From: an uncultured archaeon | GTDB lineage: Archaea > Iainarchaeota > Iainarchaeia > Iainarchaeales > DATDZZ01 | Assembly: GCA_964373795.1 (NCBI GenBank) | Contig: CAYJVY010000005.1 | Location: 1-13,226 of the forward strand | Length of the DNA stretch: 13,226 bases | Direction: 5' to 3' | Part shown: positions 1 through 13,226 of the stretch, piece by piece | Layout of the letters: every line of letters starts with the position of its first letter | Numbering within the stretch: position 1 is the first letter of the stretch | Position numbers and translations under genes: made by a program | Notes under the pieces: model-generated | Databases searched by the model: none | What the model was told of the DNA's origin: nothing | The model's input: the letters and a program-made list of their open reading frames with translations, nothing else

Positions 1-75
1 CTTTTTTCCAGCTCTCTCAGATTCCTCTACTTCTCCAACCATGTACTTTCCAATCGAAATTGGCTCTAGCTTCAT
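1..75 (-). CDS. 5' end (25 codons) of an unidentified CDS continuing beyond the left edge
   Basis: The reverse complement of 1-75 reads MKLEPISIGKYMVGEVEESERAGKK with no stop before the edge. There is a second in-frame ATG at 42-40. The fragment is too short to name or to be sure it is coding. Confidence 0.25.
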   Translation of the reverse strand, partial: MKLEPISIGKYMVGEVEESERAGKK

Positions 76-102
76 AAAACCACTTTTTAATACTTTTTTC
101 AA

Positions 103-232
103 CCACGCCAGCTGCGACGTCTCGTGCGTCGAGCACGAGAGGTCACGTGACCCTTCAGCTGCCGTCCCGCGCGGCAAGCGCGATGCCCACGTCGGCCCTC
201 AGCCACGCCGGCTGAACGGCGAGCGAACCGCG
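103..232. ncRNA. GC-rich structured island; candidate small structured RNA or cis-regulatory leader, class and strand unknown
   Basis: 130 nt at about 72% G+C (94/130 by hand count), in DNA that is otherwise about 30% G+C. Stem-loops: 121-127/133-139 (CTCGTGC gtcga GCACGAG); 141-152 (GGTCACGTGACC, perfect 12-nt palindrome); 168-172/178-182 (CGCGC ggcaa GCGCG); 199-204/210-215 (TCAGCC acgcc GGCTGA). A possible closing helix is 115-120/189-194 (CGACGT/ACGTCG). CAGCTG occurs at 109-114 and 156-161. An imperfect 12-nt direct repeat CCACGCC[A/G]GCTG occurs at 103-114 and 203-214. The island lies in a divergent spacer with TATA-like boxes on both sides (84-92 on +, 250-241 on -). Confidence 0.35.
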
Positions 233-283
233 ATAATTAGTTATAAAAAGGCAGAACTACTTAATTAAATTTGCGGCTTTAAA

Positions 284-844
284 ATGAATTCATTAAACAG
301 GGTTGAAAAAATAATTCAAGCAATAAAATTTCTAGCAATTTTTTTACTCATTTTTACAGTATTATATTCTTCAATTAATTTTTACTTAATTTCAGTGGAA
401 TTAATTTATTCAAATACCTCTGCATCCATTTTAGAGTTACTTGGATTTAAAGGAAGCATTACAGTAAAAGAATCTTTAAACTCTGTGTGGATTGTTTTTC
501 CTTCAATCATAATTCAAATAAGTTTTTTATGCTCAGGATTAATTGAATTATTTGTATTAATTTCAGCTGTTCTAGCTTCAATTAATACAAAATTGGAGAA
601 AAGAGTTATTGGGGTTTTATGGAGCCTGCCAACAATATTTGTTTTCAATAATGCAAGAATTGTTATTACTAGTTTGATTTTATTTAATTCTTCTCTTGAA
701 TTCGCGGACTTAGCTCACAATTTTTTATTCAGGGCTTCCCTGCTAATAGTAATTGTAGGGTTTTATTGGATTTGGTTTTATTGGGCTGAAAAAGGCAGTC
801 TACCACTTATTTCAAAGGAATACAAACTTAATGAAAAAAATTGA
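284..844 (+). CDS. Archaeosortase/exosortase-family integral membrane transpeptidase (minimal, 186 aa)
   Basis: ATG-to-TGA ORF with four to five hydrophobic helices. The family's ordered signature residues are present in membrane-embedded contexts: Cys83 in ISFLCSGLIELF, Arg125 in FVFNNARIVITS, His145 in ADLAHNFLFR. This matches the Cys/Arg/His arrangement described for EpsH/ArtA-type sortases. Confidence 0.75.
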   Translation: MNSLNRVEKIIQAIKFLAIFLLIFTVLYSSINFYLISVELIYSNTSASILELLGFKGSITVKESLNSVWIVFPSIIIQISFLCSGLIELFVLISAVLASINTKLEKRVIGVLWSLPTIFVFNNARIVITSLILFNSSLEFADLAHNFLFRASLLIVIVGFYWIWFYWAEKGSLPLISKEYKLNEKN

Positions 845-906
845 CAAAATATTCGTCGGAAAAAAGGTTTGCAAAGCTTGTTAAATTGTTTTTCAGAAAT
901 TTTTTT

Positions 907-1518
907 ATGAATTTAAAGTTTTCAAAAAACAAAATAATATTCAAAAAATCTTTAACAGATCTAGATAAACTTGTTTTACGTTTCGTGAAAATCCTTGAAA
1001 AACTAAAAATAAATTATGTAATAATTTCTGGATATGTTGTAATTCTTTTTGGGAGAAGTAGAAATACTGAAGACATAGATTTATTTGTTGAAGAAATGCC
1101 TTTCAAAAAATTTGCAAGTTTTTGGACAGAGTTGGAAAAAGCAGGATTTGAATGCATTAATGCTTTTACTGTAGAAGAAGCATACACTGATTTTTTACAA
1201 CAAAAACTTGCAATAAGATTTGCAGAAAAAGGTTTTTTTGAACCAAACTTTGAAATAAAATTTCCACAAAATAAATGGAATTATTATAGTTTATTTCACA
1301 TAGTAAAAGTATTTTTAGAAGAAGAGGAAAAACTAAATACTTCAGAGATTGAGTTACAGATTGCATTTAAACTGTTTCTTGGCTCAGAAAAAGACTTTGA
1401 AGATGCCAGACACTTGTACAAATTTTTTCAGGAAAACTTAAATATGTCTTTACTTAAAAATCATATAAAGGAACTAAATGTTGAAAAAGAGGCTAAGGCG
1501 GTTTTATGGAAGAACTAA
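907..1518 (+). CDS. Pol-beta-superfamily nucleotidyltransferase-fold protein (MNT/AbiEii-like), 203 aa
   Basis: Contains the minimal NTase motif hG[GS]-x(9-13)-DhDh as IISGYVVILFGRSRNTEDIDLFV (Ser41-Gly42, Asp56, Asp58 counted from Met at 907). The C-terminal segment SEIELQIAFKLFLGSEKDFEDARHLY resembles the K...R.KD..D helix seen in AbiEii/DUF-type NTases. The supplied track starts at TTG 841, overlapping the upstream stop. I prefer the first ATG at 907, but the start is uncertain. Confidence 0.7.
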   Translation: MNLKFSKNKIIFKKSLTDLDKLVLRFVKILEKLKINYVIISGYVVILFGRSRNTEDIDLFVEEMPFKKFASFWTELEKAGFECINAFTVEEAYTDFLQQKLAIRFAEKGFFEPNFEIKFPQNKWNYYSLFHIVKVFLEEEEKLNTSEIELQIAFKLFLGSEKDFEDARHLYKFFQENLNMSLLKNHIKELNVEKEAKAVLWKN

Positions 1519-1670
1519 AACTAACTAAAAAAGACTTAAAAGAATTAAAAGAAGAGATGAAAAGAAACAAACAGCAAAGAATGGAATTCATTGATGCATA
1601 CGTTGAATGGTTGAAAAAAACTCCAAACAAGGTATGGAGTAAACAACAAGCAAAATATGCAAACAAATAA
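1506..1670 (+). CDS. Small (54 aa) charged helical protein, translationally coupled to the nucleotidyltransferase; function unknown
   Basis: Not in the supplied ORF track because it is below the length cutoff. ATG at 1506 overlaps the NTase stop (TAA 1516-1518) by 13 nt; stop TAA at 1668-1670. Translation: MEELKLTKKDLKELKEEMKRNKQQRMEFIDAYVEWLKKTPNKVWSKQQAKYANK. The non-repetitive C-terminal half (FIDAYVEWLKK..VWSKQQ) looks protein-like. The 69-aa antisense ORF at 1493-1702 is low complexity. Confidence 0.45.
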   Translation: MEELKLTKKDLKELKEEMKRNKQQRMEFIDAYVEWLKKTPNKVWSKQQAKYANK

Positions 1671-1700
1671 TTGTTGGATAAGTTACTCAACACTTGCTGC

Positions 1701-1712
1701 AAAAAAAATTTT
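1701..1712. terminator. A8T4 tract between convergent genes; oligo-T terminator candidate (T8 on the minus strand, T4 on the plus strand)
   Basis: aaaaaaaatttt lies in the 53-nt spacer between the stop at 1670 (+) and the PIN stop at 1724 (-). Read on the minus strand it is a T8 run 16 nt after the PIN stop codon, as in archaeal oligo-T termination. Confidence 0.3.
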
Positions 1713-1723
1713 ACTCATTTCAA

Positions 1724-2128
1724 TTAATCAATTAAGTCTATTACTTCTTCTGTTGAAAATATAAAAACCTTGTTTTGTTTTTTTAAGTTTTTTTCGTTTG
1801 ACCAAATGCTGGAAGACATTTTTAATGCAAGTGCAAAAAAGTCTACATCATTTTGATCAGAAGTTATTTTCACTGCTTCTTGCAAAAAATCCTTATATTC
1901 GTCTAATGAAATGAACTCTACAATTGTTGCTAATTCTTTCCTTAAATCATTAAATTCTTTTCTTGAAAGCTTTGCTTTTTTTATTATTTCTTTTTCATAT
2001 TTCTTTATTTCTTCCAAAGAAAACTCTGCAGAAATGAGTTCAAGTTCTTGTTTTACAAATAGATTTCTAGTTGTTCCACGCTTCCAAAAAAAAGTAAACA
2101 AAACATTGCTGTCCACAACTAGTTTCAT
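1724..2128 (-). CDS. PIN-domain ribonuclease, VapC-like toxin (134 aa)
   Basis: N-terminal MKLVVDSNVL carries the first PIN acidic residue, Asp6. Also present are ISAEFSLEE, DVDFFALAL (Asp94/Asp96 followed by a small-residue helix) and IWSNEKNL, the position of the last acidic residue, here Glu112 rather than Asp. There is a 4-nt ATGA start/stop overlap with the upstream small gene, the classic toxin-antitoxin layout. Confidence 0.85.
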   Translation of the reverse strand: MKLVVDSNVLFTFFWKRGTTRNLFVKQELELISAEFSLEEIKKYEKEIIKKAKLSRKEFNDLRKELATIVEFISLDEYKDFLQEAVKITSDQNDVDFFALALKMSSSIWSNEKNLKKQNKVFIFSTEEVIDLID

Positions 2129-2367
2129 ATCAAGCCCTTGCTTTTCAATGCTTCAAATCTTCCTTGTTTTGTTATTCTATTAAGTCCAACTGACCATTCA
2201 ACAACTTCTTTTTCTTTTTTTAGTTTTTCACGCATTTCAGTCTTCCAGTTAAGTTCTTTGGTTTTTTCAATAAGGCATTTCCTAATAAAACCCGACCAAT
2301 TAACTTCATCAAATTCAGCCATTTTCTTTTTTACTTCCTCAGGCACAGACAAGGTAATACTAACCAT
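2125..2367 (-). CDS. Ribbon-helix-helix (CopG/VapB-like) antitoxin candidate (80 aa)
   Basis: MVSITLSVPEEVKKKMAEFDEVNWSGFIRKCLIEKTKEL fits a beta-strand/helix/helix RHH pattern and is followed by a charged tail. GGAGGT lies 6 nt upstream of the ATG (2379-2374 on the minus strand). The stop overlaps the PIN start (ATGA). Confidence 0.75.
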   Translation of the reverse strand: MVSITLSVPEEVKKKMAEFDEVNWSGFIRKCLIEKTKELNWKTEMREKLKKEKEVVEWSVGLNRITKQGRFEALKSKGLI

Positions 2368-2391
2368 TTCTAAACCTCCAACATGTGTAAA

Positions 2392-2405
2392 AACATAATT
2401 ATGTT
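2392..2405 (-). promoter_or_regulatory. Perfect 14-bp palindrome AACATAATTATGTT; candidate autoregulatory operator of the RHH/PIN operon
   Basis: Read directly from the sequence. It lies 25-38 nt upstream of the RHH start codon, between the TATA-like box (2409-2420) and the Shine-Dalgarno sequence. RHH antitoxins bind inverted repeats in their own promoters. Confidence 0.4.
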
Positions 2406-2408
2406 AAA

Positions 2409-2420
2409 ATATTTAAATAT
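2409..2420 (-). promoter_or_regulatory. TATA-like box (ATATTTAAATAT) for the RHH/PIN operon
   Basis: A/T palindrome 42-53 nt upstream of the ATG at 2367. A transcription start about 25 nt downstream would leave a short leader containing GGAGGT. Confidence 0.3.
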
Positions 2421-2466
2421 ATTGTTTGATCTTGCTGCAACTATTATGAAAAACACCAGACAATTT

Positions 2467-2664
2467 TCAAACTTTTTTGAGTTCTCTAGCTAAGTGGCTT
2501 TTACTTTTGAATAAAATAGTTTTCATTCCAAGTTTTTTCGCAGGGAAAAGATTTTTTTCTTGATCATCAATGTAAACAAGTTTCTTAGGATTTAAATGAA
2601 ATTTTTTCACAAATTTTTCATAAATCTTTTTTTCGTAATCGTTTAGGTTTGTGTGTTCAGTTTT
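2467..2664 (-). pseudogene. C-terminal fragment of a HAD-superfamily hydrolase (65 codons, no start codon, no motif I/II)
   Basis: The minus-strand frame between TAG (2667-2665) and TGA (2469-2467) reads KTEHTNLNDYEKKIYEKFVKKFHLNPKKLVYIDDQEKNLFPAKKLGMKTILFKSKSHLARELKKV. This matches the HAD C-terminal pattern K(P)..iY...l..l.v.P...vfIDD...N...A..lGm..i.f (motifs III/IV). The frame has a stop just upstream and no N-terminal DxD/DxxGV motif. Confidence 0.55.
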
Positions 2665-2893
2665 CTAATTCGAAAATCTCTAATACTATTTTTTCTTTTG
2701 TTTGTACATGCCTTTTATTTCAGATGAAGAATTAAATGCTTTACCACATAAATTGAATGTTTTGGAGAAATATGATTTTGGACTTCAAAATATTGCTGGA
2801 AGAATAGTATTAGGGCGTTTAGTTAGTTGTTTACCTGCTTTTCACAAGGAAAGGAAAACCCAGCCAAGAACAAGAATCATTGGAAGAAAGTGT

Positions 2894-4678
2894 TTAATTT
2901 GCAATTTGGTCATTTAGTATTTCAAGTTTGAAAATTTTTTCATCCTGCCAATTTTCATTAGTTCTTTGCGTTGCCCATAAATATCCATTAAAATTGTTAT
3001 TACCCGGCTCCCATTCCAAATCCCAAGTTCCTTCACTTGCTGCATAAATTTTTCCAACAACTTTTCCATCCCTTGATAATTTGCATATCATGTTTCCGCA
3101 AGGCACCCAAAAATTCTTGCCATCCCAGGCAATTCCTCCCCCGCCTTCCTGCAAGGTTATTTCCCGTAAAAGTTTTCCTTCAGTAGTCATTTCATAAACA
3201 ATATTAGTAGTCCATCCCATTATCAAAAGATTTTTTCCATTCCATGCAAGACCTTTTGCACCTCTTTCTTGGTCAGGGTTTTTGAAAGAAAACAATTCTT
3301 TTCCAGTTTCCGGATCTAAAGAGTATGTTCTTTTTTCAGCAAAATCCGTTATCCATAAATTTTTTCCATCAAAAGCCATTCCCCAAGGCTGTGCACTCGG
3401 AGCCTGGAATTCCTTCAATATTTTCCCAGAATCTTGGTCAATTTTATGGATGTCTCCTGAAACCCCAGAAACCCAAACATTTTTCCCTTCCAAAGCAATG
3501 CTCCAAGTAAGCCCCAAGCCTTTTCCAAACTTTTTTACAACACTTCTTGTTTCATCATCAGGATAAACATACAAATATTTGTCTTTTTTCTGGTCTCCAG
3601 GAGTATAATTCAAATCAAATTTTTTGGCATCAGAAAAACCAAAATCAATTTTTTCAATTCCTTTTCCTTCAAAGCCTTCAGGCAGAAATTTTTCAGGGCA
3701 GTTTGTTTTTTCATTAACTGCAACAAACTTGTTTTCACTTCCTAGCAATTTATTTTCTCCTTCTCCGCATTGCAATCCAAAAAGCCAATTATTTTCCAAA
3801 TAATTGCTGTTTGCAGTGACTTCTGCAGTGTTATCCAAAGATAAACCTGAAGCATGATTTTCGCGCAGAATATTGTTTTCAACCAAAGCCTTTGTTGCAT
3901 CAACATGAATTCCATGAGTTCCAGATTTTTCAAACAAATTATTCCTTATCACTGCATCATTGAACTGCTCTAAAGCAATTCCATTATACCCGTTCTGGTA
4001 AACCATATTGAATTCAATCAAAGGCGTAGAATAAGATTCAGCATACAAACCTTCCCAGTTGTTCCATCTTATAATTGAGTGGTTAATTTTTGCATCAGAT
4101 TTCCACAAATTCACTCCTTGCTGGCCGAACTCTATAACAACATAACTAATCTGGCTGCCAGTTTTTCCAAACAATCTTATCATTCCCCAGTCACCATTCT
4201 GCGGTTCATTTGCATCAGAAGTGAAAAATATCTGTTTTTCAGGAGAACCAATTGCCTTCAAAGTTCCTTCAACAAACAAACTAGTTTTTCCTTGTTTTTT
4301 GTAATCTCTGTTATGCTTGAATTTTACAATAGTTCCTGGAAGAATTGTCAAAGTAACTCCTTCTAGAACCTCTAAAGAATCAGTTATAAAAATTTCTCCA
4401 CTCCATGTTTCATTTTTCTCGAGCCTTCCAAATTTTTCATTGTTTGTTGTCGTTTCTTCTGGCATTTCTGGATTTTCAGGCATTGTCTTATTTCCAGTTT
4501 CTGGAATTATTACATCTGTGTTTTTGTCAATTTCGTTAGAAGGATTCTGCACATTATAAAAATTATTTTCCGGAACCTTATTTTTATCTACAATATTTTC
4601 ATTTACAGGCTTATTTGAAACCTGCACGCAGCCAGAGAGAAATACTAAAACCAAAATAGCAATAAGAATTCTTTTCAT
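2894..4678 (-). CDS. Secreted lipoprotein with a right-handed parallel beta-helix (PbH1/NosD-like) domain and a C-terminal beta-propeller (594 aa)
   Basis: GGAG lies 3 nt upstream of the ATG. The N-terminus MKRILIAILVLVFLSGC has a K/R n-region, a hydrophobic core and the lipobox L-S-G-C (Cys17), followed by an N/E/P-rich linker. Residues about 95-320 carry PbH1-type repeats (TLTILPGTIVKF, NHSIIRWNNWEGLY, NMVYQNGYNGIAL, AVIRNNLFEKSGTHGIHV, ALVENNILRENHASGLSL, ANSNYLENNWLFGL). Residues about 385-580 carry blades spaced about 40 aa apart: IALEGKNVWV (394-403), MAFDGKNLWI (434-443), LAWNGKNLLI (477-486), IAWDGKNFWV (516-525) and a degenerate NFNGYLWAT. Confidence 0.9.
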   Translation of the reverse strand: MKRILIAILVLVFLSGCVQVSNKPVNENIVDKNKVPENNFYNVQNPSNEIDKNTDVIIPETGNKTMPENPEMPEETTTNNEKFGRLEKNETWSGEIFITDSLEVLEGVTLTILPGTIVKFKHNRDYKKQGKTSLFVEGTLKAIGSPEKQIFFTSDANEPQNGDWGMIRLFGKTGSQISYVVIEFGQQGVNLWKSDAKINHSIIRWNNWEGLYAESYSTPLIEFNMVYQNGYNGIALEQFNDAVIRNNLFEKSGTHGIHVDATKALVENNILRENHASGLSLDNTAEVTANSNYLENNWLFGLQCGEGENKLLGSENKFVAVNEKTNCPEKFLPEGFEGKGIEKIDFGFSDAKKFDLNYTPGDQKKDKYLYVYPDDETRSVVKKFGKGLGLTWSIALEGKNVWVSGVSGDIHKIDQDSGKILKEFQAPSAQPWGMAFDGKNLWITDFAEKRTYSLDPETGKELFSFKNPDQERGAKGLAWNGKNLLIMGWTTNIVYEMTTEGKLLREITLQEGGGGIAWDGKNFWVPCGNMICKLSRDGKVVGKIYAASEGTWDLEWEPGNNNFNGYLWATQRTNENWQDEKIFKLEILNDQIAN

Positions 4679-4759
4679 AGCTCCAATATGAAATTCAGAA
4701 ATAAATACTTTTCCATGGCTTCGAGTAATGTTTCAAAAAGTGCCGAAGCATTCTCTGTT

Positions 4760-4954
4760 ATGGCTTATAAGTTTTTAGAAGAATAAGTTTTTAGAAGACT
4801 GGCAACAGCAGACATTGCTTTTGAGGTTTCTGCAAACAATTTACAGAAGTTGTTTGAGGATTCTTCCAGTGCAAGACAGTCAAACCAAAAATTCAAAAAA
4901 ATTTTCATGCAGGTAGAAACTCCTGAAAAACTTTTGCACGATTTTTTATCCTGA
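4760..4954 (+). pseudogene. N-terminal fragment of an archease gene, interrupted by an in-frame stop and truncated
   Basis: The frame reads MAYKFLEE*VFRRLATADIAFEVSANNLQKLFEDSSSARQSNQKFKKIFMQVETPEKLLHDFLS*. YKFLE..TADIAFEV....L.KLFED and VE....LL.DFL match the archease N-terminal consensus ([FY]E.[LF][DE]HTAD[IA].......LEE.FE.....VEVE....LL..FL.E). TAA at 4784-4786 lies inside the second copy of a 16-nt tandem duplication. Only about 60 of the about 140 aa expected are present. Confidence 0.5.
4767..4798. repeat. Perfect 16-nt tandem duplication (ATAAGTTTTTAGAAGA x2)
   Basis: Read directly: 4767-4782 is identical to 4783-4798. In copy 1 the ATAAG is read as (T)AT AAG (Tyr-Lys). In copy 2 it is shifted by 16 nt and read as TAA, a stop. 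Confidence 0.95.
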
Positions 4955-5033
4955 AATTTACTGCTATTTTTAAGCCATTATTGAATAATACTCCGCTTAA
5001 ATCAAAAACAAGAATTTTTCTAAAAACAGGCAT
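4905..5033 (-). pseudogene. N-terminal fragment of a HAD-superfamily hydrolase (42 codons, then stop)
   Basis: The minus strand from ATG at 5033 reads MPVFRKILVFDLSGVLFNNGLKIAVNFRIKNRAKVFQEFLPA*. ILVFDLSGVLF is HAD motif I (hhhhDxxGVL) at the usual distance from the N-terminus. Stop is at 4907-4905. The last about 17 codons are antisense to the archease fragment, so probably only about 25 codons are HAD-derived. Confidence 0.5.
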
Positions 5034-5107
5034 TACAAAATATAGTTTAGCAATAATAAAAAACTATTTATCAAACTGCAAGATTTTGTAACCCAACTTT
5101 TAAATAC

Positions 5108-5140
5108 TTGAATAGTTTTACTTTAATATATATAAATATA
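5108..5140 (+). promoter_or_regulatory. A/T-rich promoter-like region upstream of the giant gene
   Basis: TTTAATATATATAAATATA (5122-5140) is TATA-box-like, 40-65 nt upstream of the candidate starts. It can also be read bacterial-style as TTGAAT (5108-5113), a 17-nt spacer and TATAAA (5131-5136). GGAG at 5177-5180 would serve the ATG at 5187. Confidence 0.3.
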
Positions 5141-5186
5141 GAAGAAGAAAAGATATGTAGGATTAAGCTTTTTTGTGGAGATGTTA

Positions 5187-8100
5187 ATGGCTTTAAGTGA
5201 GGTTTTTTCAGGAATTTACAATAAAGTTGAAGAAACATATTATGGGTTCTTTGATTTCCTGGAAGAAAAAGGAATTCCTCTTTCAGGATATAATGCTTTT
5301 TTAGAGGAAAAAGGAATCCCTGCAATGCCTTTCACTATTGCATTAATTTTGCTTTTAATTATTGGCTCGCTTGGAGTAATGAATTTCTCTGCAGGAGTAA
5401 ATCAAAAAATTTCTTTCATAATTAAAGACGATTTTGGAAACCCATTAAAAGATGTTAAAATAACTTTTTTGAATGAAAAAAATGAAAAAATAATTGATGC
5501 AGAGAAAAGCGATTCAACTGAATTCCTTTTACAAGGAAGGCCTTTAGGAGAAAAAATCTTAGTTGAAGCAACTAAAAAAGGATTCAAAAAAGGAACTGCA
5601 AATTTAGAAATTGAAAAAGACAAACCTGTTTCTTTAAGTTTTACTTTGGAAAGAGAAGAAGGAGGAACAATTACTGGAAAGATTAGATTAGTTGATGCTG
5701 CAACTGATTCATTGATTTCAAAAGAAAAATTAATTGTAACAGCTAAATGGGGAAAAGGAGCTGAACAAATTACAAGGCAAGCAAATTTTATTGAAAAAAC
5801 TAGTTCATGGAATTTTCCTCAAATTCCAAGAGGAGAACAAGTATTAGTTGACATTAAAGCAGACAACTATGAATCGTTTAATCAATTAATGAGGTTTGAA
5901 AACGAGGAAGCAATTACAGTTGAATTAAAGCCAAAAGCTTCTCTTGCAGGATTAAAAGTTAAATTAACTTTAATAGTTAAAGACTTAGAAAAACAAGAAC
6001 TCTTACAAGAAATTGGAGTTAGAATTGTTCAACAAGACGGAGAAGATTTCGCAAACATTGAAAAAACTAATTCAGGGCATTCAATTGAAATTCCAACAGA
6101 AATAGGGTTTAAAATTGAAGTAAGAAAAGAAGGATTCATTACTTATTTGTCTCCGGAATTTATTACAATTAAAGAAGACACTGAACAAGAAATCTTTCTT
6201 CAAAAAGGAGGAGAAAGTTTAAGAGTACTAGTATTAAATGCAATAAATAATCCAGTTGAAAACAGTTTAGTGCAATTATTTGATTTTCAAGGAAACAAAA
6301 TAGGCGAAACCCAGACAACAACCTTTGAAGGAGTTGCAAGATTTGAAGGATTAAATCCTGAAGAAAAATATTTTGTAACAGTTTTCAATGAAAAATACTT
6401 GCCTAAAAGAGTTGAAGTGCAAACAAAAACTGAAAAAGAAACCTCAATTAAATTAGAAGAACTTACTTCAACTAATTCAAGTAGTTTAGTAATTTTAGTT
6501 GAAGACAATAAAGCAGTAAAACAAGCAAACACTTCCTTATTCTTTTACGAATTAATTGAAGACAAGCAATTGCCTTTAGGAATTCCAAAAAAAGAAACAG
6601 ATTTACAAGGAACTCTTACAGTTAACGTTCCGCAAAACATTAAAGTATTAGTTAAAGCAGTTAAAGGAGGATTTGAAGGAACAGGGGAAACAGAAATTAA
6701 AACAGAGCCAGTAGTTCAATTAAAAATAGTAATAGAGTTAAGCAGCACTGCAACAAAAATTTTGTTAAAAGATTTAGTAGGAAAACCAGTTAAAGGAAAA
6801 GTAAAAATTGAGTCTCCAACAGGAGAAATATTATTTGAAGGAGAAACAAATGGAGAAGTATTCATTAATCCTGGGAACTCAAAATTTGTTAAAGTAACTT
6901 TTACAGATGCATCAGGGCAAACATTTACAGAAGAATTAAATGTTGAAAGCAGACTTGCAACAATGAAAATTAAAACAGGTGAAACAACTGGATTAGAACC
7001 AAAAATTGAATTCTTAGGAGTATTTGATGTAAGAGGAAATAAAACTGAAGGAGTTGAAAAAGGAAAAGATTATTACTTAAATTTTGAATTAACTTTTCCT
7101 GAAGGAGACTTTGAAGGAGGAATGCATGTAAGAGTTGGCCCAGATGACGTGAAATTTGTTGACTCACAGTTTGCAGGAGTAACAGGTTTTCTAGGAGATG
7201 CAGATAGATTTGTTTATGGAAGAACTTATAACGCGTTTCCTTCTCCAGGACAACAAATAATTGATTTAAGAAACCAAGGAGTTTCAGGGGAATTCAATAA
7301 ATGGATTGAATTATATTTCAATAAACCAAAAGGAAAAAAAGTAATTAAAGTAAGAGTTCAAGCAAGAGAATCAACTACAGCTGATTCATTTGAATTACAT
7401 TACAGATCGTGGATTAAAACAGATTTAGGATATATTAGAACTCCTGAAGACTCAATTCTTCAACAAGCAGCATTTAATTCCAGTAAAAGCACTTTATATG
7501 CTGATTCAATTAAGCAAGACATAAAAATTTTTGAAGGAAAAACTAATTGTAAAAAACTATTATGCGCTTCATATAATTTTGTAACAAAAAATAGAGGAAT
7601 ATTTGCAGCAGATGCATTTAAAGCAATTAAAGATGAAGTAAATGCATTAGAAATAGAGTTAACTGCAACTGAATCAGTTAAACCAGTTGTAAGCATTAAC
7701 ACTCCAAAAGATCCAATAAACGTAGTGTTAACTGGATTTGATATAAGGAATTTCACTGAATTCATTAACCAAGAAAAAGAAGACACTTCTTTAGAGATTA
7801 GTTCAATTTCTTTAAACAAAAACGAAACACTAAAAATACGCGTGTATTTTAAAGGATTAAATGAAACAACTTCCAGCATTGCAACTCAAATAGTTGCAGG
7901 AAATGAAGTAATAAAAGAAACCTTTTACTTTCCAATATTTGTTGAAAAAGAAATGAATGTAACTGTTTCTCCTTCAAATGCAACGCTTGGAGAAAACATT
8001 ACAGTTCTTGCAAAAGATGTAGACGGAATAGGAATTGAAGACGCAAAAATTGAAATTAAAAGCTTGGGAAAAAGAACAGTTAAAACAATTCAAGGAAATG

Positions 8101-11100
8101 CTTCAAATAATAGAGGTTTAAGTGGAAGATATTTTATTGAAAACAATTTAGATCCAGGAAGATATAAATTATTAGTAACTGCTCCTGGGTTTAAGTTTTT
8201 TGAAACAGAAATTGAAATAGGGAAAACAAATGTATTAAAGATTGAGTCTCCAATTAAGTTAAACATTTTAAAGGAAATAAAAAAAGCTTCAAAAACTGTA
8301 AGCTTAAGTAATACAGGAGAAGAAACAATTGAAAACATTTCATTTACTTTAATTAAAGCAGAAGAATTTGATGAAAGCTTTAAAGTAGAGGTTTCAGGGC
8401 CAACAAGTTTGCCTGGAAAAGCAAGTCCAAGCAATTTAGTAATTAAAGCTGAATTCATTGGAGAAGACATTGAAGCAAGAAAAGCATCTCATGTAAAACT
8501 AGTTGTAACTGGAAACATTGTAGGAAAATATTCAACTAAATCAGAGGAAACAATTGATTTAACCTTTAATCAAAAACTTGAAGAAAATTGCATTGAATTC
8601 AGTAAACAAAAACTTGGAGTAGCATTACTTGCAGAAACAGATTTCACTAAAGACTTTGGAGGAAGTTTTGCTTATTCAAATCCTCCACTAAATCCATTCA
8701 CTAATCCTCAAAGAAGACAAGAATTGAAAACAGTTGGATTAAGTGCAAGCAAAAACGTTGACTTTGTTGCAAAAAATAAATGCAATGAAAAAGTTGTTTT
8801 AAGGCCAGCATTTAAAGGAAATCAATTCATTAAAATTGATGCCCAAGAAATTGCTTTAGATGCAGGAGCAGAACAACCAGTAATTATTACTGTAACAAAT
8901 TTAGTTGATCAAGCAGATTTTGGAAGAAGAATTCATAACTTTGATTTAGTGTTTGAAGCAAGCCAGTTAACTAAAAGAATTCCTTTAAGTGTAAGCATTT
9001 TAAGCTCCAGGTTTGCAATCATTGCTCCAACAAATATTGAAATAGCAATTGCTCAACCAACTCCAAATGCAAAAATAAGAGTAGTAGAGCCTATAATGAT
9101 TTTAAATCAAGGAGAATTTGATATTGAAGCAATTGATTTATCCATTGACCCAACAAGTGAAGGAGGATTAAAGTTCAGCATTTTCCCAGTACAAGCATTT
9201 CCATTGCTTAGAAGAGGGCAAAGCGTTTTCCCTCCAAAAGCAATAGTAATTGAAGCAGATCAAATCAAATCAGGAGATGTTTTAACTCAAATAAATGTAT
9301 TTGGAACAATTGAAGGAAAACGCTTACTGCTTAGAACAATTAATGTAATCTCTCATGTATCAGCTCCCGGATGCATGCAAGTAAGTCCTACAACTTTTTT
9401 CTTTGAAAGAGTTAAACCAGAAGGAGTAATATCCAAAGAAATTAAAATAAAAAATTTGTGTTCAGAGCCTTTAAGAATTTCAAGTGCATCAATTGAAAGC
9501 GAGTTAGGGCAAAACCAGTTAGGAATTCGCCCAATCTCAAACCAAACAGGTTTAATTGGATTAAACTTTGAAGAAACATTTGCATTAGAATTAGGAGTTA
9601 AAGCAATCAGTCAAATAAATACTGCTCTAAAAATTAACGGAGTATTAGTTAACAGTCAAACACCTATTTCTTCAGAGCCTTTAACTGCTTCAATTAATAT
9701 TGGGCCAACATCAGTGCAAGAAGGAAAAGCAACTCAAGAATTTGAAATGAATGTATGTGAAGAGCCAAACAAAAAAGTTACAGTGAAATTTCCATTACCA
9801 ACTAATTACGCTAACCCTAATTGCTCTGAAGGATACTGTGATGCAGTGCAATTAACTGATTTCTTGGCTAAAAAAATTAATCAAAAAGTTCAAGAAATTG
9901 ATGGAAGAGTTTCACTTGAAAAAGGAGAAACAACTGGAGACTTTAAAACATTTGAAGACTTAAAGGTAAGAGAAGAAGAATTCACTGTATTCTTTCAAAA
10001 CGATAATTTAACTCCAGAAGAATTAAAGAAAGCAATTTCAGAAGACAAATACTATAAAATAAGGCATTACATTGTAGAACTAGATTCAGTTAAAGGATAT
10101 GAAGCTAAAAGAACTGGAAAAGCATTTCTTGGATCTAGAATTTTATTGGAAACAGAAAATTTCAGGGGATGCGGAAAATACATTGCCAGAATTAAAGGAA
10201 GCGTTCCAGTAATTAATGGAAAACTTAGAACTGATTCAATAATTTTATTCGTTGAAGTAACTCAAGACAAAGATGAAACAGCTGAATGCCTGCCAGTAAT
10301 TGAAAACTTTTCAAACTTTTTGCCAAGAGATCGAGATGTAGATGCAAAATCTTCTCTAGGAGTATTGCCTGGAACTGTTTTCACTGAACAACAAGGATTA
10401 GAAGAAATGGGTAAAAAAATGGCAGAAGTTTTATTCAATTCAAGTGAAAGATATGTAAACAAAAACACTAACAAGTTATTACTTGAATTAGGAGCGGGAA
10501 AAGAATTACAAGGAAGGTTATTGAAACTAGATATAGAAAAAGCTTCAATTGGAGAAGGAGCAAAAATATTAAAGGCAACAGTAAACGATAAAGTGTTTGC
10601 TTCACTGGCAAAAGAAAAACTAGTAGAAGAAGCAGCTCAAGCAATTAATGCTTTAACTCAAAAAAAGTTAAGCAATATGTGTAAATCAAATTCAGGATAT
10701 TTCTTAATTTCTTCAAGCGAAGCAGTAACAGAATCCTTAGAGATTCCAAAAGAAACACTAAAAATAAGACTGTTAAGACAAACAAGTGCAACTCCTGAAA
10801 CTCAATGCACTGCATTCAATGTTTCAGCATTAAAACCAGTAAACGAATTAGTGTACGGGTTTTCAGAAGAAGCTCATTCCTTGCTTGCAACTCAAAAAAT
10901 TAATGTATTTGAATTAAGAGAAACAAATGAAAAAGGAAATCCAGGAAACATTGTAAGCAAAATAAGCAATTTGCCAGAAGAATTCACTGCAACAAATTTA
11001 AGCAGTATAAGGGAAAGCGATTTCGTTAAAGGAAAATACAGTAGAACATTCAATGTATGCGCTTTAGGATCTGCTGCAATGGCTGCAGCTCACGGAGAAA

Positions 11101-13226
11101 AATTCTTTACATCAGTTAAAAACAACGATGCAGAATTATTTCAGCCACAAAAAATTTCAGTTGAATTAGAAGCATGTTTTTCAAATCCATTAAAAGGAGT
11201 AGAAGAGTTTTACAGAGAAATAGAATCAGATGAAGCAAAAATAAAGCTAGGAGAAGGAGAAAAAATAGTGAAATATGCTTCATTTACTTGGAAAGGAACT
11301 CCAGAAAAACTTGCATTAAAAGACTTGATTGATGAAATGCTTAAACAAGGAGTTGAAGTAAAAGGATTTACAACAAATATAACAGATCAAACTGGAGCAA
11401 ATATTGGAAAAGAGTTAAGCAAAGAACACAATGAAAAAATAAAACAAGCAAACACTCAAGGAATAATGACTCGCTATCTTCCAGCATGCGCTGCAACTGC
11501 TGCAGGACTAGGATTTTTAACTAAAGGCGGGCCTTTAGGATCTTTATTTGATGCAGTATTTGATTGCGCTATTCCAGCAATAGTAGCAGCATCCTCTTAC
11601 GATCCATTGGCTAAAACAATTTACGATAACTCTATTGGAGTAATTAAAAAAGTTTTAGGAAGTGGTTGGGAAACAGCATTAGAATTAATTGGAGGAGAAG
11701 AAAAAGTAAAAGAAGCAGTTGAAGCAGGAGTAAGCCTTGAAACAGCTTCCACTCCAGAAGAAAGGTATACTGCATTAAATGCAATTGAAAATGTTTCAGG
11801 AAAAGAATTAGATGAATTCTTTGAAGGCGAATACGGAGACATGCAAAAATTAGTTGCAGAAGGAACAATTGAATCCACTATTGCAGGAGCAGCTGCTGCA
11901 GGAACAAGAGGAAGAATTCTTCATCCAAGGCTAGTGAAAGGATTTGCTTCACAATTATCAGATCAATACGTGAATGCATTCATTAAAGAAAGAGGTTTAA
12001 CAGGAGAAGCAGCAAAACAATTCAGAACATCTGCTGGAAAAGTTTTAGAAGAAAGACTTGCAAAAGCATTAGAAGCAGATGCATCAAAAATAATTGGAAA
12101 AAGAGGGGCAAGAGTTACAACAGGGTATTTAAGTAATCAATTAAAAACAGTTGCAAATCAACCAGACTTTTTAGACAAGGCTTGGGAAGAATTTGTTAAA
12201 GACACTAAAAAGATTCCAGCAGGAGCAACAATGCATCCAGCACTAACTGAATTAAGAGGAACTGGAGCTCCTGTAGGAACTCCTGCAACTCCATTTCAAG
12301 CAGAAGTAGAAGACATTTTAGAAAAAACAGTTAAAACAAAAACTACAGCTATTGCAAACAATTTAGGAGATGTAACAGGGCTTCCAAGGCAAAACATTCC
12401 AATTACTCCTGGAGGATTACCAACAGGAAGAAATGTAGGAGCATTCAGAGACTCAATTAGAGATGGTTTGACTTCAAGAGCAATTGCAAAACTTCAAGCA
12501 GAAGGAGTTGAAATAACTACTCAACTAGAAACAGAAATTAGAACATTTATGCATACACAATCCAGAACAATTCCAGTTCAATCTGAAAACATATTTGCTC
12601 CAAGAGGGACTACAGCTGTAACACAGTATTATATGGATCTTCCAGACAATCAAGCAAAAACAATGGTAAACAATGCTTTAAACAATACAAGAATTAAGGA
12701 TGAAATTGCTCAAGCTTTATACGAACACAATGACACTTTAGAAGCAATTGAAAAACAAGCTGCAAACAAGTTTTTGAAAGACTCTGCAGATAATGCATTA
12801 GAATCTGCAAGCAAAGTAACTACTACTAAGAAAATTGCAAGGCTTGGAAAAAATTTATTTACAGGAGCTGCAAGAGGATTCTTTATTGGAAGCATTGCAA
12901 ACTTTGCAGGACTAGGCGCATGGAAAGCATTCTTTTCAAACGGAGAAGGAGCAAAACCATTAGATTCAATTACAGTAATTGGCGCAAGAACAGATGTAAT
13001 TGAAGGCCTCCAAGGAAATGAAATGCAAAACGTGGAATTAGATAAAGAACATGTATTCAAATTAATTTACTCTAAACCAGATTTAAAGCAAGAAAAATAC
13101 ACTTTAGAAATTCAATTAATTGATCCATTAAGAACAGAGGTTCCAAGAAATGCGAAATGGATTTCTTGTAACACAAATCCTGCAGCAGAAGAAAGAGACT
13201 GGAAATACAGAGAAATAAAAGAATAA
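5187..13226 (+). CDS. Giant (about 2,680 aa) membrane-anchored surface protein with carboxypeptidase-regulatory-like/Ig-like and PapD/ASH-like beta-sandwich arrays and a novel C-terminal hydrophobic/helical module
   Basis: The frame is open for 8,052 nt (5175-13226, stop TAA at 13224-13226) in AT-rich DNA where stops are frequent, so it is certainly coding. Candidate starts are GTG 5175, ATG 5181 and ATG 5187. ATG 5187 has GGAG 6 nt upstream and is preferred. There is one strong TM helix (aa 52-70 in track numbering). Six tandem modules of about 85 aa (aa 79-600), with a seventh at aa 926-1016, fit the CarboxypepD_reg-like pattern, for example ISFIIKDDFGNPLKDVKITF...ILVEATKKGFK and SLRVLVLNAINNPVENSLVQLF...YFVTVFNEKYLP. 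Four modules of about 100 aa (aa 1027-1510) have 'v.l.N.G...l.i' sandwich patterns. Confidence 0.95.
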   Translation: MALSEVFSGIYNKVEETYYGFFDFLEEKGIPLSGYNAFLEEKGIPAMPFTIALILLLIIGSLGVMNFSAGVNQKISFIIKDDFGNPLKDVKITFLNEKNEKIIDAEKSDSTEFLLQGRPLGEKILVEATKKGFKKGTANLEIEKDKPVSLSFTLEREEGGTITGKIRLVDAATDSLISKEKLIVTAKWGKGAEQITRQANFIEKTSSWNFPQIPRGEQVLVDIKADNYESFNQLMRFENEEAITVELKPKASLAGLKVKLTLIVKDLEKQELLQEIGVRIVQQDGEDFANIEKTNSGHSIEIPTEIGFKIEVRKEGFITYLSPEFITIKEDTEQEIFLQKGGESLRVLVLNAINNPVENSLVQLFDFQGNKIGETQTTTFEGVARFEGLNPEEKYFVTVFNEKYLPKRVEVQTKTEKETSIKLEELTSTNSSSLVILVEDNKAVKQANTSLFFYELIEDKQLPLGIPKKETDLQGTLTVNVPQNIKVLVKAVKGGFEGTGETEIKTEPVVQLKIVIELSSTATKILLKDLVGKPVKGKVKIESPTGEILFEGETNGEVFINPGNSKFVKVTFTDASGQTFTEELNVESRLATMKIKTGETTGLEPKIEFLGVFDVRGNKTEGVEKGKDYYLNFELTFPEGDFEGGMHVRVGPDDVKFVDSQFAGVTGFLGDADRFVYGRTYNAFPSPGQQIIDLRNQGVSGEFNKWIELYFNKPKGKKVIKVRVQARESTTADSFELHYRSWIKTDLGYIRTPEDSILQQAAFNSSKSTLYADSIKQDIKIFEGKTNCKKLLCASYNFVTKNRGIFAADAFKAIKDEVNALEIELTATESVKPVVSINTPKDPINVVLTGFDIRNFTEFINQEKEDTSLEISSISLNKNETLKIRVYFKGLNETTSSIATQIVAGNEVIKETFYFPIFVEKEMNVTVSPSNATLGENITVLAKDVDGIGIEDAKIEIKSLGKRTVKTIQGNASNNRGLSGRYFIENNLDPGRYKLLVTAPGFKFFETEIEIGKTNVLKIESPIKLNILKEIKKASKTVSLSNTGEETIENISFTLIKAEEFDESFKVEVSGPTSLPGKASPSNLVIKAEFIGEDIEARKASHVKLVVTGNIVGKYSTKSEETIDLTFNQKLEENCIEFSKQKLGVALLAETDFTKDFGGSFAYSNPPLNPFTNPQRRQELKTVGLSASKNVDFVAKNKCNEKVVLRPAFKGNQFIKIDAQEIALDAGAEQPVIITVTNLVDQADFGRRIHNFDLVFEASQLTKRIPLSVSILSSRFAIIAPTNIEIAIAQPTPNAKIRVVEPIMILNQGEFDIEAIDLSIDPTSEGGLKFSIFPVQAFPLLRRGQSVFPPKAIVIEADQIKSGDVLTQINVFGTIEGKRLLLRTINVISHVSAPGCMQVSPTTFFFERVKPEGVISKEIKIKNLCSEPLRISSASIESELGQNQLGIRPISNQTGLIGLNFEETFALELGVKAISQINTALKINGVLVNSQTPISSEPLTASINIGPTSVQEGKATQEFEMNVCEEPNKKVTVKFPLPTNYANPNCSEGYCDAVQLTDFLAKKINQKVQEIDGRVSLEKGETTGDFKTFEDLKVREEEFTVFFQNDNLTPEELKKAISEDKYYKIRHYIVELDSVKGYEAKRTGKAFLGSRILLETENFRGCGKYIARIKGSVPVINGKLRTDSIILFVEVTQDKDETAECLPVIENFSNFLPRDRDVDAKSSLGVLPGTVFTEQQGLEEMGKKMAEVLFNSSERYVNKNTNKLLLELGAGKELQGRLLKLDIEKASIGEGAKILKATVNDKVFASLAKEKLVEEAAQAINALTQKKLSNMCKSNSGYFLISSSEAVTESLEIPKETLKIRLLRQTSATPETQCTAFNVSALKPVNELVYGFSEEAHSLLATQKINVFELRETNEKGNPGNIVSKISNLPEEFTATNLSSIRESDFVKGKYSRTFNVCALGSAAMAAAHGEKFFTSVKNNDAELFQPQKISVELEACFSNPLKGVEEFYREIESDEAKIKLGEGEKIVKYASFTWKGTPEKLALKDLIDEMLKQGVEVKGFTTNITDQTGANIGKELSKEHNEKIKQANTQGIMTRYLPACAATAAGLGFLTKGGPLGSLFDAVFDCAIPAIVAASSYDPLAKTIYDNSIGVIKKVLGSGWETALELIGGEEKVKEAVEAGVSLETASTPEERYTALNAIENVSGKELDEFFEGEYGDMQKLVAEGTIESTIAGAAAAGTRGRILHPRLVKGFASQLSDQYVNAFIKERGLTGEAAKQFRTSAGKVLEERLAKALEADASKIIGKRGARVTTGYLSNQLKTVANQPDFLDKAWEEFVKDTKKIPAGATMHPALTELRGTGAPVGTPATPFQAEVEDILEKTVKTKTTAIANNLGDVTGLPRQNIPITPGGLPTGRNVGAFRDSIRDGLTSRAIAKLQAEGVEITTQLETEIRTFMHTQSRTIPVQSENIFAPRGTTAVTQYYMDLPDNQAKTMVNNALNNTRIKDEIAQALYEHNDTLEAIEKQAANKFLKDSADNALESASKVTTTKKIARLGKNLFTGAARGFFIGSIANFAGLGAWKAFFSNGEGAKPLDSITVIGARTDVIEGLQGNEMQNVELDKEHVFKLIYSKPDLKQEKYTLEIQLIDPLRTEVPRNAKWISCNTNPAAEERDWKYREIKE

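Follow-up and report, generated by a model that had tools for sequence, protein, structure and literature searches.

The stretch of DNA analysed here (the window) is 13,226 nucleotides (nt) long, comes from an uncultured archaeon of the Iainarchaeota (GenBank assembly GCA_964373795.1, contig CAYJVY010000005.1, positions 1 to 13,226) and carries the gene of a giant surface protein that we call giant A. Judging by its sequence, this protein is a new member, lacking a C-terminal tail, of a family of DPANN archaea that has been noted before and is experimentally uncharacterised, and it makes a solid candidate for host contact. We lean, modestly, towards a model where giant A is a contact stalk that reaches and binds the envelope of another cell, host or prey, a function that we infer. 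The protein would be fixed in the membrane of its own cell by a cytoplasmic leader, short and conserved, and by a single transmembrane helix; at the far end of its rod of 13 beta-sandwiches there would be an alpha/beta head rich in Cys and a helical module that is amphipathic and rich in Ala. The rod would measure roughly 40-50 nm if fully extended, because ~3.5-4 nm per domain is assumed from typical domain lengths. The distal parts would be presented to the envelope of the other cell and bind it. In relatives that carry a tail, the same scaffold may also deliver wall-cutting enzymes; the window protein would offer no more than reach, head and helical module.

The giant A gene is real and complete and is no assembly chimera. 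The open reading frame (ORF) listing gives a single frame at 5175..13226 (+) of 2683 codons, with a GTG start and with its stop as the last codon of the window. A preliminary description of the window, made without database searches, had claimed a complete gene of 2,683 codons, and this is upheld by the listing and by two agreeing assemblies, with a likelier start slightly further in. The N-termini of the family align from 'M-x-x-S-E-x-x-x-x-x-Y', and ATG 5187 ('MALSEVFSGIY') is the most likely start because it fits the N-termini of homologs as well as the public gene call of 2679 residues. Residue positions below nevertheless follow the 2683-codon numbering unless stated. An NCBI protein encoded on a 102-kb contig has exactly the sequence of the window protein. 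The Logan assembly L001 (run ERR3478686), made separately, shows 5 mismatches to the window in 13,116 nt and no indels, and its copy of the protein, P0001, differs at three residues.

Relatives of full length were readily found. A word-indexed search returned ~20 of them (2,500-3,450 residues, 25-32% identity, query coverage up to 100%), with source names that include 'Candidatus Diapherotrites archaeon'. When 1.84 billion representatives were searched exhaustively by HMMER with a profile of the C-terminal half of giant A, 188 clusters reached E<=1e-3 and 134 reached E<=1e-30. All full-length matches are proteins of 2,400-3,400 residues, and this half starts ~1,470-1,690 residues into each of them; in P0001 the profile matches residues 1511-2672 of the 2,679-residue numbering. 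Scanning the representative genomes of GTDB for the N-terminal motif yielded seven loci, whose labels include Iainarchaeum, Micrarchaeota and 'archaeon', and the gene of one relative has archaeal genes for RNA polymerase and ribosomal proteins as neighbors. As aligned, giant A is one conserved colinear architecture and no mosaic, and the window protein is a member of it, with the leader, the single transmembrane helix and the colinear head and helical C-terminal module. The preliminary description had met an architecture that it could match to no family it could name; the 134 clusters at the stricter threshold, from metagenome-assembled genomes of DPANN archaea, now supply that family. Its suggestion that the DNA came from a small-genome DPANN-type archaeon is supported by the identity of the relatives, and along its full length the protein showed no homology to any characterised family of adhesins or S-layer proteins.

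The first ~50 residues of the window protein are acidic and conserved, and the helix behind them (residues 51-69, Kyte-Doolittle hydropathy 2.41) is its sole strong hydrophobic segment, much as had been proposed for residues 52-70. Across the family the leader follows the motif 'Y..LE.KYY...DFL..KGIP.Y.YNDFLEEKGIPAFP', in which G33, G47 and P49 are invariant, and its mean column identity of 0.56 (residues 1-50) is slightly surpassed only by residues 651-700 (0.57). As this helix is the only strongly hydrophobic segment family-wide (hydropathy 2.4-3.5), giant A would span the membrane once, as a signal-anchored protein with its N-terminus inside and the remainder, up to its C-terminus, outside the cell. 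The window protein holds 24 N-x-S/T sequons, in line with the more than 15 first claimed. The general picture of a giant, N-terminally anchored and mostly beta-sandwich surface protein is supported.

Pfam, hhalign, AlphaFold2 and Foldseek combined resolve 13 beta-sandwich domains in the rod. CarboxypepD_reg (PF13620) is the sole Pfam family recognised in the window protein above its cut-off (56.1 bits versus 32.3, in three stretches). When residues 75-604 are cut into six slices of ~88 residues, slices 1 and 4 alone match this family individually; in profile-profile comparisons built from family sub-alignments, all six slices show homology among themselves and with residues 926-1022, mostly at 93-98% probability (hhalign). 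These scores back the six tandem sandwiches of the preliminary description. Its seventh (residues 926-1016) was found at 928-1023, with 94-97% probability against slices d1-d4. An AlphaFold2 model of residues 590-1530 (m65eb8f4866fe; 13 family sequences) is entirely beta, with a mean predicted local distance difference test (pLDDT) score of 83. It confirms the four PapD/ASH-like sandwiches already proposed and overturns the view that residues 600-925 cannot be assigned, as these form two ordinary beta-sandwiches at ~610-786 and ~790-922. This two-sandwich region is among the best conserved of the family, the sandwich at residues 650-800 standing there along with the leader, and the second sandwich has an invariant Cys pair (C792/C797). 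Cys 1139, 1203, 1400 and 1429 are likewise invariant in the PapD/ASH-like sandwiches, and we count the invariant paired Cys of the ectodomain in favour of a surface arm. The top Foldseek matches of this model are ASH/PapD-repeat proteins of the ciliary central apparatus (E = 1e-25), followed by macroglobulin MG domains, DSCAM, the immunoglobulin (Ig)-like domains of PrgB, and SbsB, all generic strings of sandwiches; a search of PDB sequence profiles with the same residues gave nothing significant. A disordered linker at residues ~1155-1190, between the first two PapD/ASH-like sandwiches, looks like a variable hinge. Exactly at this linker, P0005, P0011, P0013 and P0014 carry long low-complexity inserts rich in Tyr, Gly, Asn and Ser.

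Beyond the rod, a second AlphaFold2 model (residues 1515-2683) is confident for residues 1515-1845 only. The Cys-containing alpha/beta region that had been outlined at residues 1527-2100 is thus confirmed in kind, its confident part being this shorter head, where C1528, C1550, C1555 and D1556 are invariant. Foldseek found no close solved relative of the head fold in the PDB. The only PDB match below 1e-3 for the second model was BcsB (E = 7e-5), which we set aside as an identity for the head at a template modelling score of 0.15. Nothing significant came from viral models (BFVD, Foldseek) or from a PDB sequence-profile search with residues 1515-2683. Residues 1846-2090, with weak Foldseek matches to CBM32, F-lectin and GOLD domains, are possibly jelly-roll or CBM-like in the model. 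The last ~580 residues are compositionally distinct, as had been noticed (Ala 10-13%), and are modelled as helical at low confidence. This module has two moderately hydrophobic segments, at residues 2101-2142 ('YLPAC...FDCAIPAIVAASSY') and 2557-2588 (a glycine-zipper-like 'G.G...G...N.AG..AW'), with hydropathy of at most 1.7 in the window protein and 1.9 family-wide; C2105, C2131 and G2579 are conserved.

No recognisable catalytic domain was found in the window protein with Pfam, NCBIfam, PDB sequence profiles or Foldseek, and the NCBIfam scan of the whole protein gave noise only. HExxH and GDSL motifs were absent in a motif scan, as was the RTX motif GG.G.D, and Pfam showed neither HemolysinCabind nor an SLT/GH23 domain, the latter being present in relatives only. 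No S-layer family matched in Pfam or NCBIfam, the Foldseek resemblance to SbsB being generic. The C-terminus ('...WISCNTNPAAEERDWKYREIKE') has no transmembrane helix, and the window protein bears no PGF-CTERM, PEP-CTERM or VPXXXP-CTERM signal.

The early statement that there is no catalytic domain accordingly holds for the window protein and fails for the family. Among the 62 full-length relatives whose alignment reaches the end of the family profile, 49 extend 120-700 residues past the point where the window protein ends; 13 are tail-less, the window protein among them, as it stops 7 residues past the profile end. Eight of the 28 tails scanned pass Pfam cut-offs as peptidoglycan hydrolases (SLT, NlpC/P60, Amidase_3, Glucosaminidase; Table 1), and one of these proteins, P0035, is named 'transglycosylase SLT domain-containing protein [Ca. 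Diapherotrites archaeon]' at NCBI. DPANN archaea are not known to make peptidoglycan themselves; the confirmed hydrolase tails therefore imply action on the walls of other organisms.

Table 1. Features of giant A, of its relatives and of the surrounding genes. Positions are those of the window unless a locus (L) or relative (P) is named; aa, residues; TM, transmembrane; AF2, AlphaFold2.
Feature	Position	Strand	Basis or remark
Giant protein gene, giant A	5187..13226	+	2,679 aa from ATG 5187
Conserved N-terminal leader (aa 5-50), predicted cytoplasmic	5187..5324	+	'Y..VE..YY..FDFLEEKGIP...YN.FLEEKGIPAMP'
Single strongly hydrophobic TM helix, signal-anchor (aa 51-70)	5325..5384	+	Kyte-Doolittle
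Six tandem CarboxypepD_reg-like beta-sandwiches (aa 75-604)	5397..6986	+	PF13620; hhalign (sequence profiles)
Two larger beta-sandwiches (~610-786, ~790-922)	7002..7940	+	AF2, pLDDT ~80-93, all-beta
Seventh CarboxypepD_reg/PEGA-like sandwich (aa 926-1023)	7950..8243	+	AF2; hhalign; weak PEGA match
Four PapD/ASH-like sandwiches (1027-1152, 1192-1276, 1287-1396, 1401-1509)	8253..9701	+	AF2 and Foldseek
Cys-rich alpha/beta head (aa 1515-1845)	9717..10709	+	AF2 pLDDT ~80-90; invariant 'GYCDA' motif
Mixed beta/alpha region (aa 1846-2090)	10710..11444	+	AF2 pLDDT 35-70; weak Foldseek matches
Ala/Gly-rich helical module (aa 2091-2600)	11445..12974	+	Composition; AF2 all-helix, pLDDT 30-65
Small terminal beta-hairpin domain, conserved C2665	12975..13223	+	AF2 strands aa 2621-2648
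SLT tails	P0035, P0078, P0086		Pfam
SLT + GDSL tails	P0017, P0130		Pfam
NlpC/P60 tail	P0019		Pfam, E = 1e-24
NlpC/P60 + Amidase_3 + Glucosaminidase tail	P0041		Pfam
Glucosaminidase tail	P0085		Pfam
Giants B, with giants C following	L002:20048-27127, L003:19695-27302, L004:20713-28458		Leader and TM helix in common with giant A
Mini exosortase/archaeosortase-family membrane protein, 186 aa, 'LCSG' Cys motif	284..844	+	TIGR04178
Probable first 25 codons of FlaI/TadA-like filament ATPase, cut by window edge	1..75	-	tblastn, position
Nucleotidyltransferase (NTase)-like ORF	841-1518		Weak DUF2204
54-aa DUF8150 ORF	within 841-2367		Domain match
PIN_2 toxin	1724-2128	-	Domain match
RHH antitoxin	2125-2367	-	Domain match
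594-aa lipoprotein-signal protein, right-handed beta-helix/NosD region	2894-4678	-	Another secreted surface protein
Sec-signal, Cys-rich protein, C-terminal 'TQPPT' repeats	L001:13586-14752		Cut by contig end, ~470 nt past window end

The family has very probably been noticed already, only through its SLT domain. Castelle et al. 2021 described large proteins of DPANN archaea, up to 3,000 residues long, that have a lytic transglycosylase domain, and proposed that they bind bacterial walls (PMC8204110); in Woesearchaeota, Vigneron et al. 2022 mention genes for a 'large lytic murein transglycosylase' (PMC9723730). Giant A, judged by description, is probably fam00969 of the former study. The shared traits of fam00969 and the large transglycosylases with giant A are their occurrence in DPANN archaea, a length of ~2,500-3,000 residues, a predicted extracellular location and a C-terminal SLT domain in some members; the window protein differs in having no SLT domain. 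The literature that we found describes proteins of the fam00969 type by this domain, in Woese- and Pacearchaeota. It contains no description of the full architecture, of the common leader or of giants B and C (introduced below), and no link of the giants to type IV filament loci or to an archaeosortase. A survey of archaeal type IV filaments leaves giant proteins and sortases in DPANN loci unmentioned (10.64898/2026.04.22.720090), and papers on DPANN attachment organelles and nanotubes seen by cryo-electron tomography assign no proteins to them (PMC11329633 for nanotubes).

The gene neighborhood of giant A was explored in eight homolog loci, with upstream genes considered within 10 kb. Six of the eight share an order in which giant A is followed by a pilin-like protein of ~550 residues (~505-582) starting 'MNKKGFNLFTALV' and then by a second giant, B, of ~2,350-2,980 residues; a third, giant C, comes next in at least three of those six (L002, L003 and L013). 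All three giants begin with the common leader and transmembrane helix, and giant B matches the giant A profile across its first ~1,160 positions only. The C-terminal half of giant B is unrelated to giant A except for a similar 'CDxxQ' motif. A ~180-residue gene of the exosortase/archaeosortase family is present upstream of giant A in 6/8 loci, its orthologues sharing 35-43% identity, and a FlaI/TadA-like (T2SSE) ATPase accompanied by a ~775-residue T2SSF-like platform protein is found in four. L002 and L004 also encode six or seven small proteins whose pilin signals are of the archaeal KGQ type. In L003 the filament ATPase (L003:2431-6252) holds an intein with a LAGLIDADG domain and reaches 1,273 residues, compared with ~760 elsewhere.

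In the window, the archaeosortase-like gene scores 42.7 bits with TIGR04178 (exo_archaeo, NCBIfam), against a cut-off of 23, and E = 1.2e-5 with Exosortase_EpsH (Pfam). No matching C-terminal sorting signal was found among nearby candidate proteins: giant A, giant B, the ~550-residue pilin-like proteins and the beta-helix protein all end without one. At the window edge, 60..1 (-) aligns with residues 1-20 of the L002 ATPase (tblastn, 45% identity, only 20 residues aligned), and this putative start and the exosortase-like gene point away from each other, an arrangement also seen in L002 and L004. The match is suggestive of the N-terminus of the ATPase at 1..75 (-), and the window retains the archaeosortase and, probably, the start of the ATPase. 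A G+C-rich island (~68%, ~135 nt, at ~100-235) lies in the divergent intergenic region of this ~29% G+C genome; it held no tRNA and no Rfam match at E<=1, and its fold z-scores of -1.9 and -1.3 were not significant. Downstream, the public contig stops 1.6 kb after the giant A gene.

The preliminary description had also cast the protein as a component of an attachment organelle. This idea may still be entertained as a reading, and it is strengthened by the conserved neighborhood, with its filament genes and paralogous giants. A wider version of it, which we hold tentatively and think rather unlikely to be right as a whole, is that the three giants, the ~550-residue pilin-like protein, the filament ATPase, platform and pilins and the mini-archaeosortase together form an undescribed contact machine specific to DPANN archaea. 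The three giants would be recruited via their common 'LEDKYY...IP.F(P)' leader, the distal hydrolases of many lineages would point to bacteria and not archaea as the partners or prey, and the window protein would be an adhesin-only version of the lead arm.

The same filament genes raise the possibility that giant A is itself a giant pilin or a pilus-tip protein, its leader and helix being an unusually long class III prepilin signal and the filament machinery mounting the cleaved protein at the tip or the base of a pilus, beside the ~550-residue pilin-like protein. A '[KR]-G' stands immediately before the hydrophobic helix ('EEKG' followed by 'IPAMPF'), its Gly being the invariant G47, and the motif is found in 82 of the 90 full-length relatives. 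Loci of relatives hold the ATPase, the platform, the KGQ-type pilins and the large pilin-like protein directly downstream. The leader, however, has 46 residues and is highly conserved, unlike prepilin leaders, and the Pro residues at +2 and +5 fall outside the usual archaeal pattern of the FlaFind-type consensus. Since N, V or G precedes 'IPSF' in giants B and C, the conserved element is 'IP.F(P)' and not the Gly that prepilin peptidases need. The helix also leads straight into a sandwich, where a pilin would have its alpha1-C/beta head. A Pfam test for the class III signal returned no match even for control pilins. PilY1 and GspK, as tip adhesins or large minor pilins, resemble giant A in lying beside filament ATPase, platform and pilin genes and in their adhesion role, but giant A has no PilY1 homology, is about ten times the size of a pilin and bears a doubtful class III signal. 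Taken together, we regard a pilin identity as unlikely.

We think it just as unlikely that giant A is a structural envelope protein, S-layer-like or part of a canopy, with no role in contact and with the hydrolase tails of its relatives as secondary acquisitions. N-terminally anchored strings of Ig-like domains do occur in archaeal envelope proteins, the S-layer protein SbsB is one of the many generic sandwich matches, and the window protein has no enzyme domain. Against this stand the lack of any S-layer family match in Pfam and NCBIfam, the lack of PGF-CTERM or another C-terminal sorting signal, and the recurrence of wall-lytic tails across several subgroups. Three paralogous giants with one copy each in a filament locus are also unlike a single, highly expressed S-layer gene.

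Less probable still is an effector arm that attacks membranes, in which the helical module would insert into the target membrane and open a channel after the tails of relatives have cleared the wall, in the manner of phage ejection or tape-measure proteins or the translocators of secretion systems. The two conserved, moderately hydrophobic segments ('C...DC..PA' and 'G.G...G...N.AG..AW') would suit such a role, and the module directly precedes the hydrolase tails in relatives; cytoplasmic bridges and nanotubes between DPANN cells and hosts have been seen by cryo-electron tomography with no genes assigned (PMC11329633). The hydrophobicity is weak, however (with a ceiling of 1.9 and values under 1.6 in around half of the members), AlphaFold2 confidence is low, no significant tape-measure or translocator match came from Foldseek against the PDB and BFVD, and the PDB sequence-profile search was empty. 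Finally, a chimeric assembly or pseudogene fusion of unrelated ORFs, for which the climb in G+C from 0.29 to 0.37 along the gene might speak, is effectively refuted, as the two assemblies match, tens of independent full-length relatives (~60) are colinear from the N-terminal leader through the last domain, and the climb is accounted for by the Ala/Gly-rich C-terminal composition.

Several findings weigh against reading giant A as a contact stalk, besides the envelope alternative above. The window protein itself has neither a lytic tail nor a recognised binding domain, the head is without an informative structural relative in the models, and the C-terminal 840 residues are of low AlphaFold2 confidence. 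Pfam gave no assignment for twenty of the 28 scanned tails. In the largest cluster of tails, of 25 members, no Pfam family matches, alignment with the SLT tails reaches only 47% probability (hhalign, E = 2e-4), and the catalytic Glu is often missing, with Lys frequently at that position; the best PDB profile match of this cluster is MltC at E ~0.1, and it is possibly lysozyme-like by sequence. As to the locus, the filament ATPase was seen in only half of the homolog loci within the 10 kb considered. In the window, toxin-antitoxin and accessory genes sit between the archaeosortase and giant A, and in L001 the Cys-rich protein occupies the slot that the ~550-residue pilin-like gene takes in the six conserved loci. 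Sequence and structural models show the anatomy of giant A, its family, the synteny and the hydrolase tails of relatives, and from these the ectodomain topology, the length of the rod, the binding of another cell, a joint action with giants B and C and the filament machinery, and a bacterial target are inferred.

Proteins of comparable design are known from bacteria and from other DPANN archaea. SiiE, the RTX adhesins of the LapA/MpIBP type and Bap are type I secreted, have RTX repeats at the C-terminus and stay lodged in an outer membrane. Giant A is like them in its rod of tandem Ig-like or beta-sandwich domains, which would hold a distal ligand-binding region tens of nm out, and differs in its N-terminal transmembrane anchor, the absence of an RTX motif, its other distal modules and its archaeal origin. 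The SPEARE proteins of Nanohaloarchaeum antarcticus are giant surface proteins of a DPANN episymbiont that have been proposed to act in host attachment or invasion; they exceed 5,000 residues and combine protease, adhesion and restriction-endonuclease-like domains. Giant A is smaller, and no sequence relationship to them was detected. The Omnitrophota, which are bacteria, reportedly include ultra-small host-dependent cells with surface giants implicated in wall degradation and with Tad-like or type IV filament genes. Their giants are far larger, at tens of thousands of residues, and as far as tested are unrelated to giant A in sequence.

For the question of which genes let DPANN archaea find, grip and exploit other cells, the giant A family offers a concrete, conserved candidate with a defined architecture and a recurring neighborhood. 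The hydrolase tails make sense only against bacterial walls and bear on whether some DPANN archaea live on bacteria. The window protein does not settle the function of the family; what it contributes is a variant without a tail and a clean reference sequence of full length.

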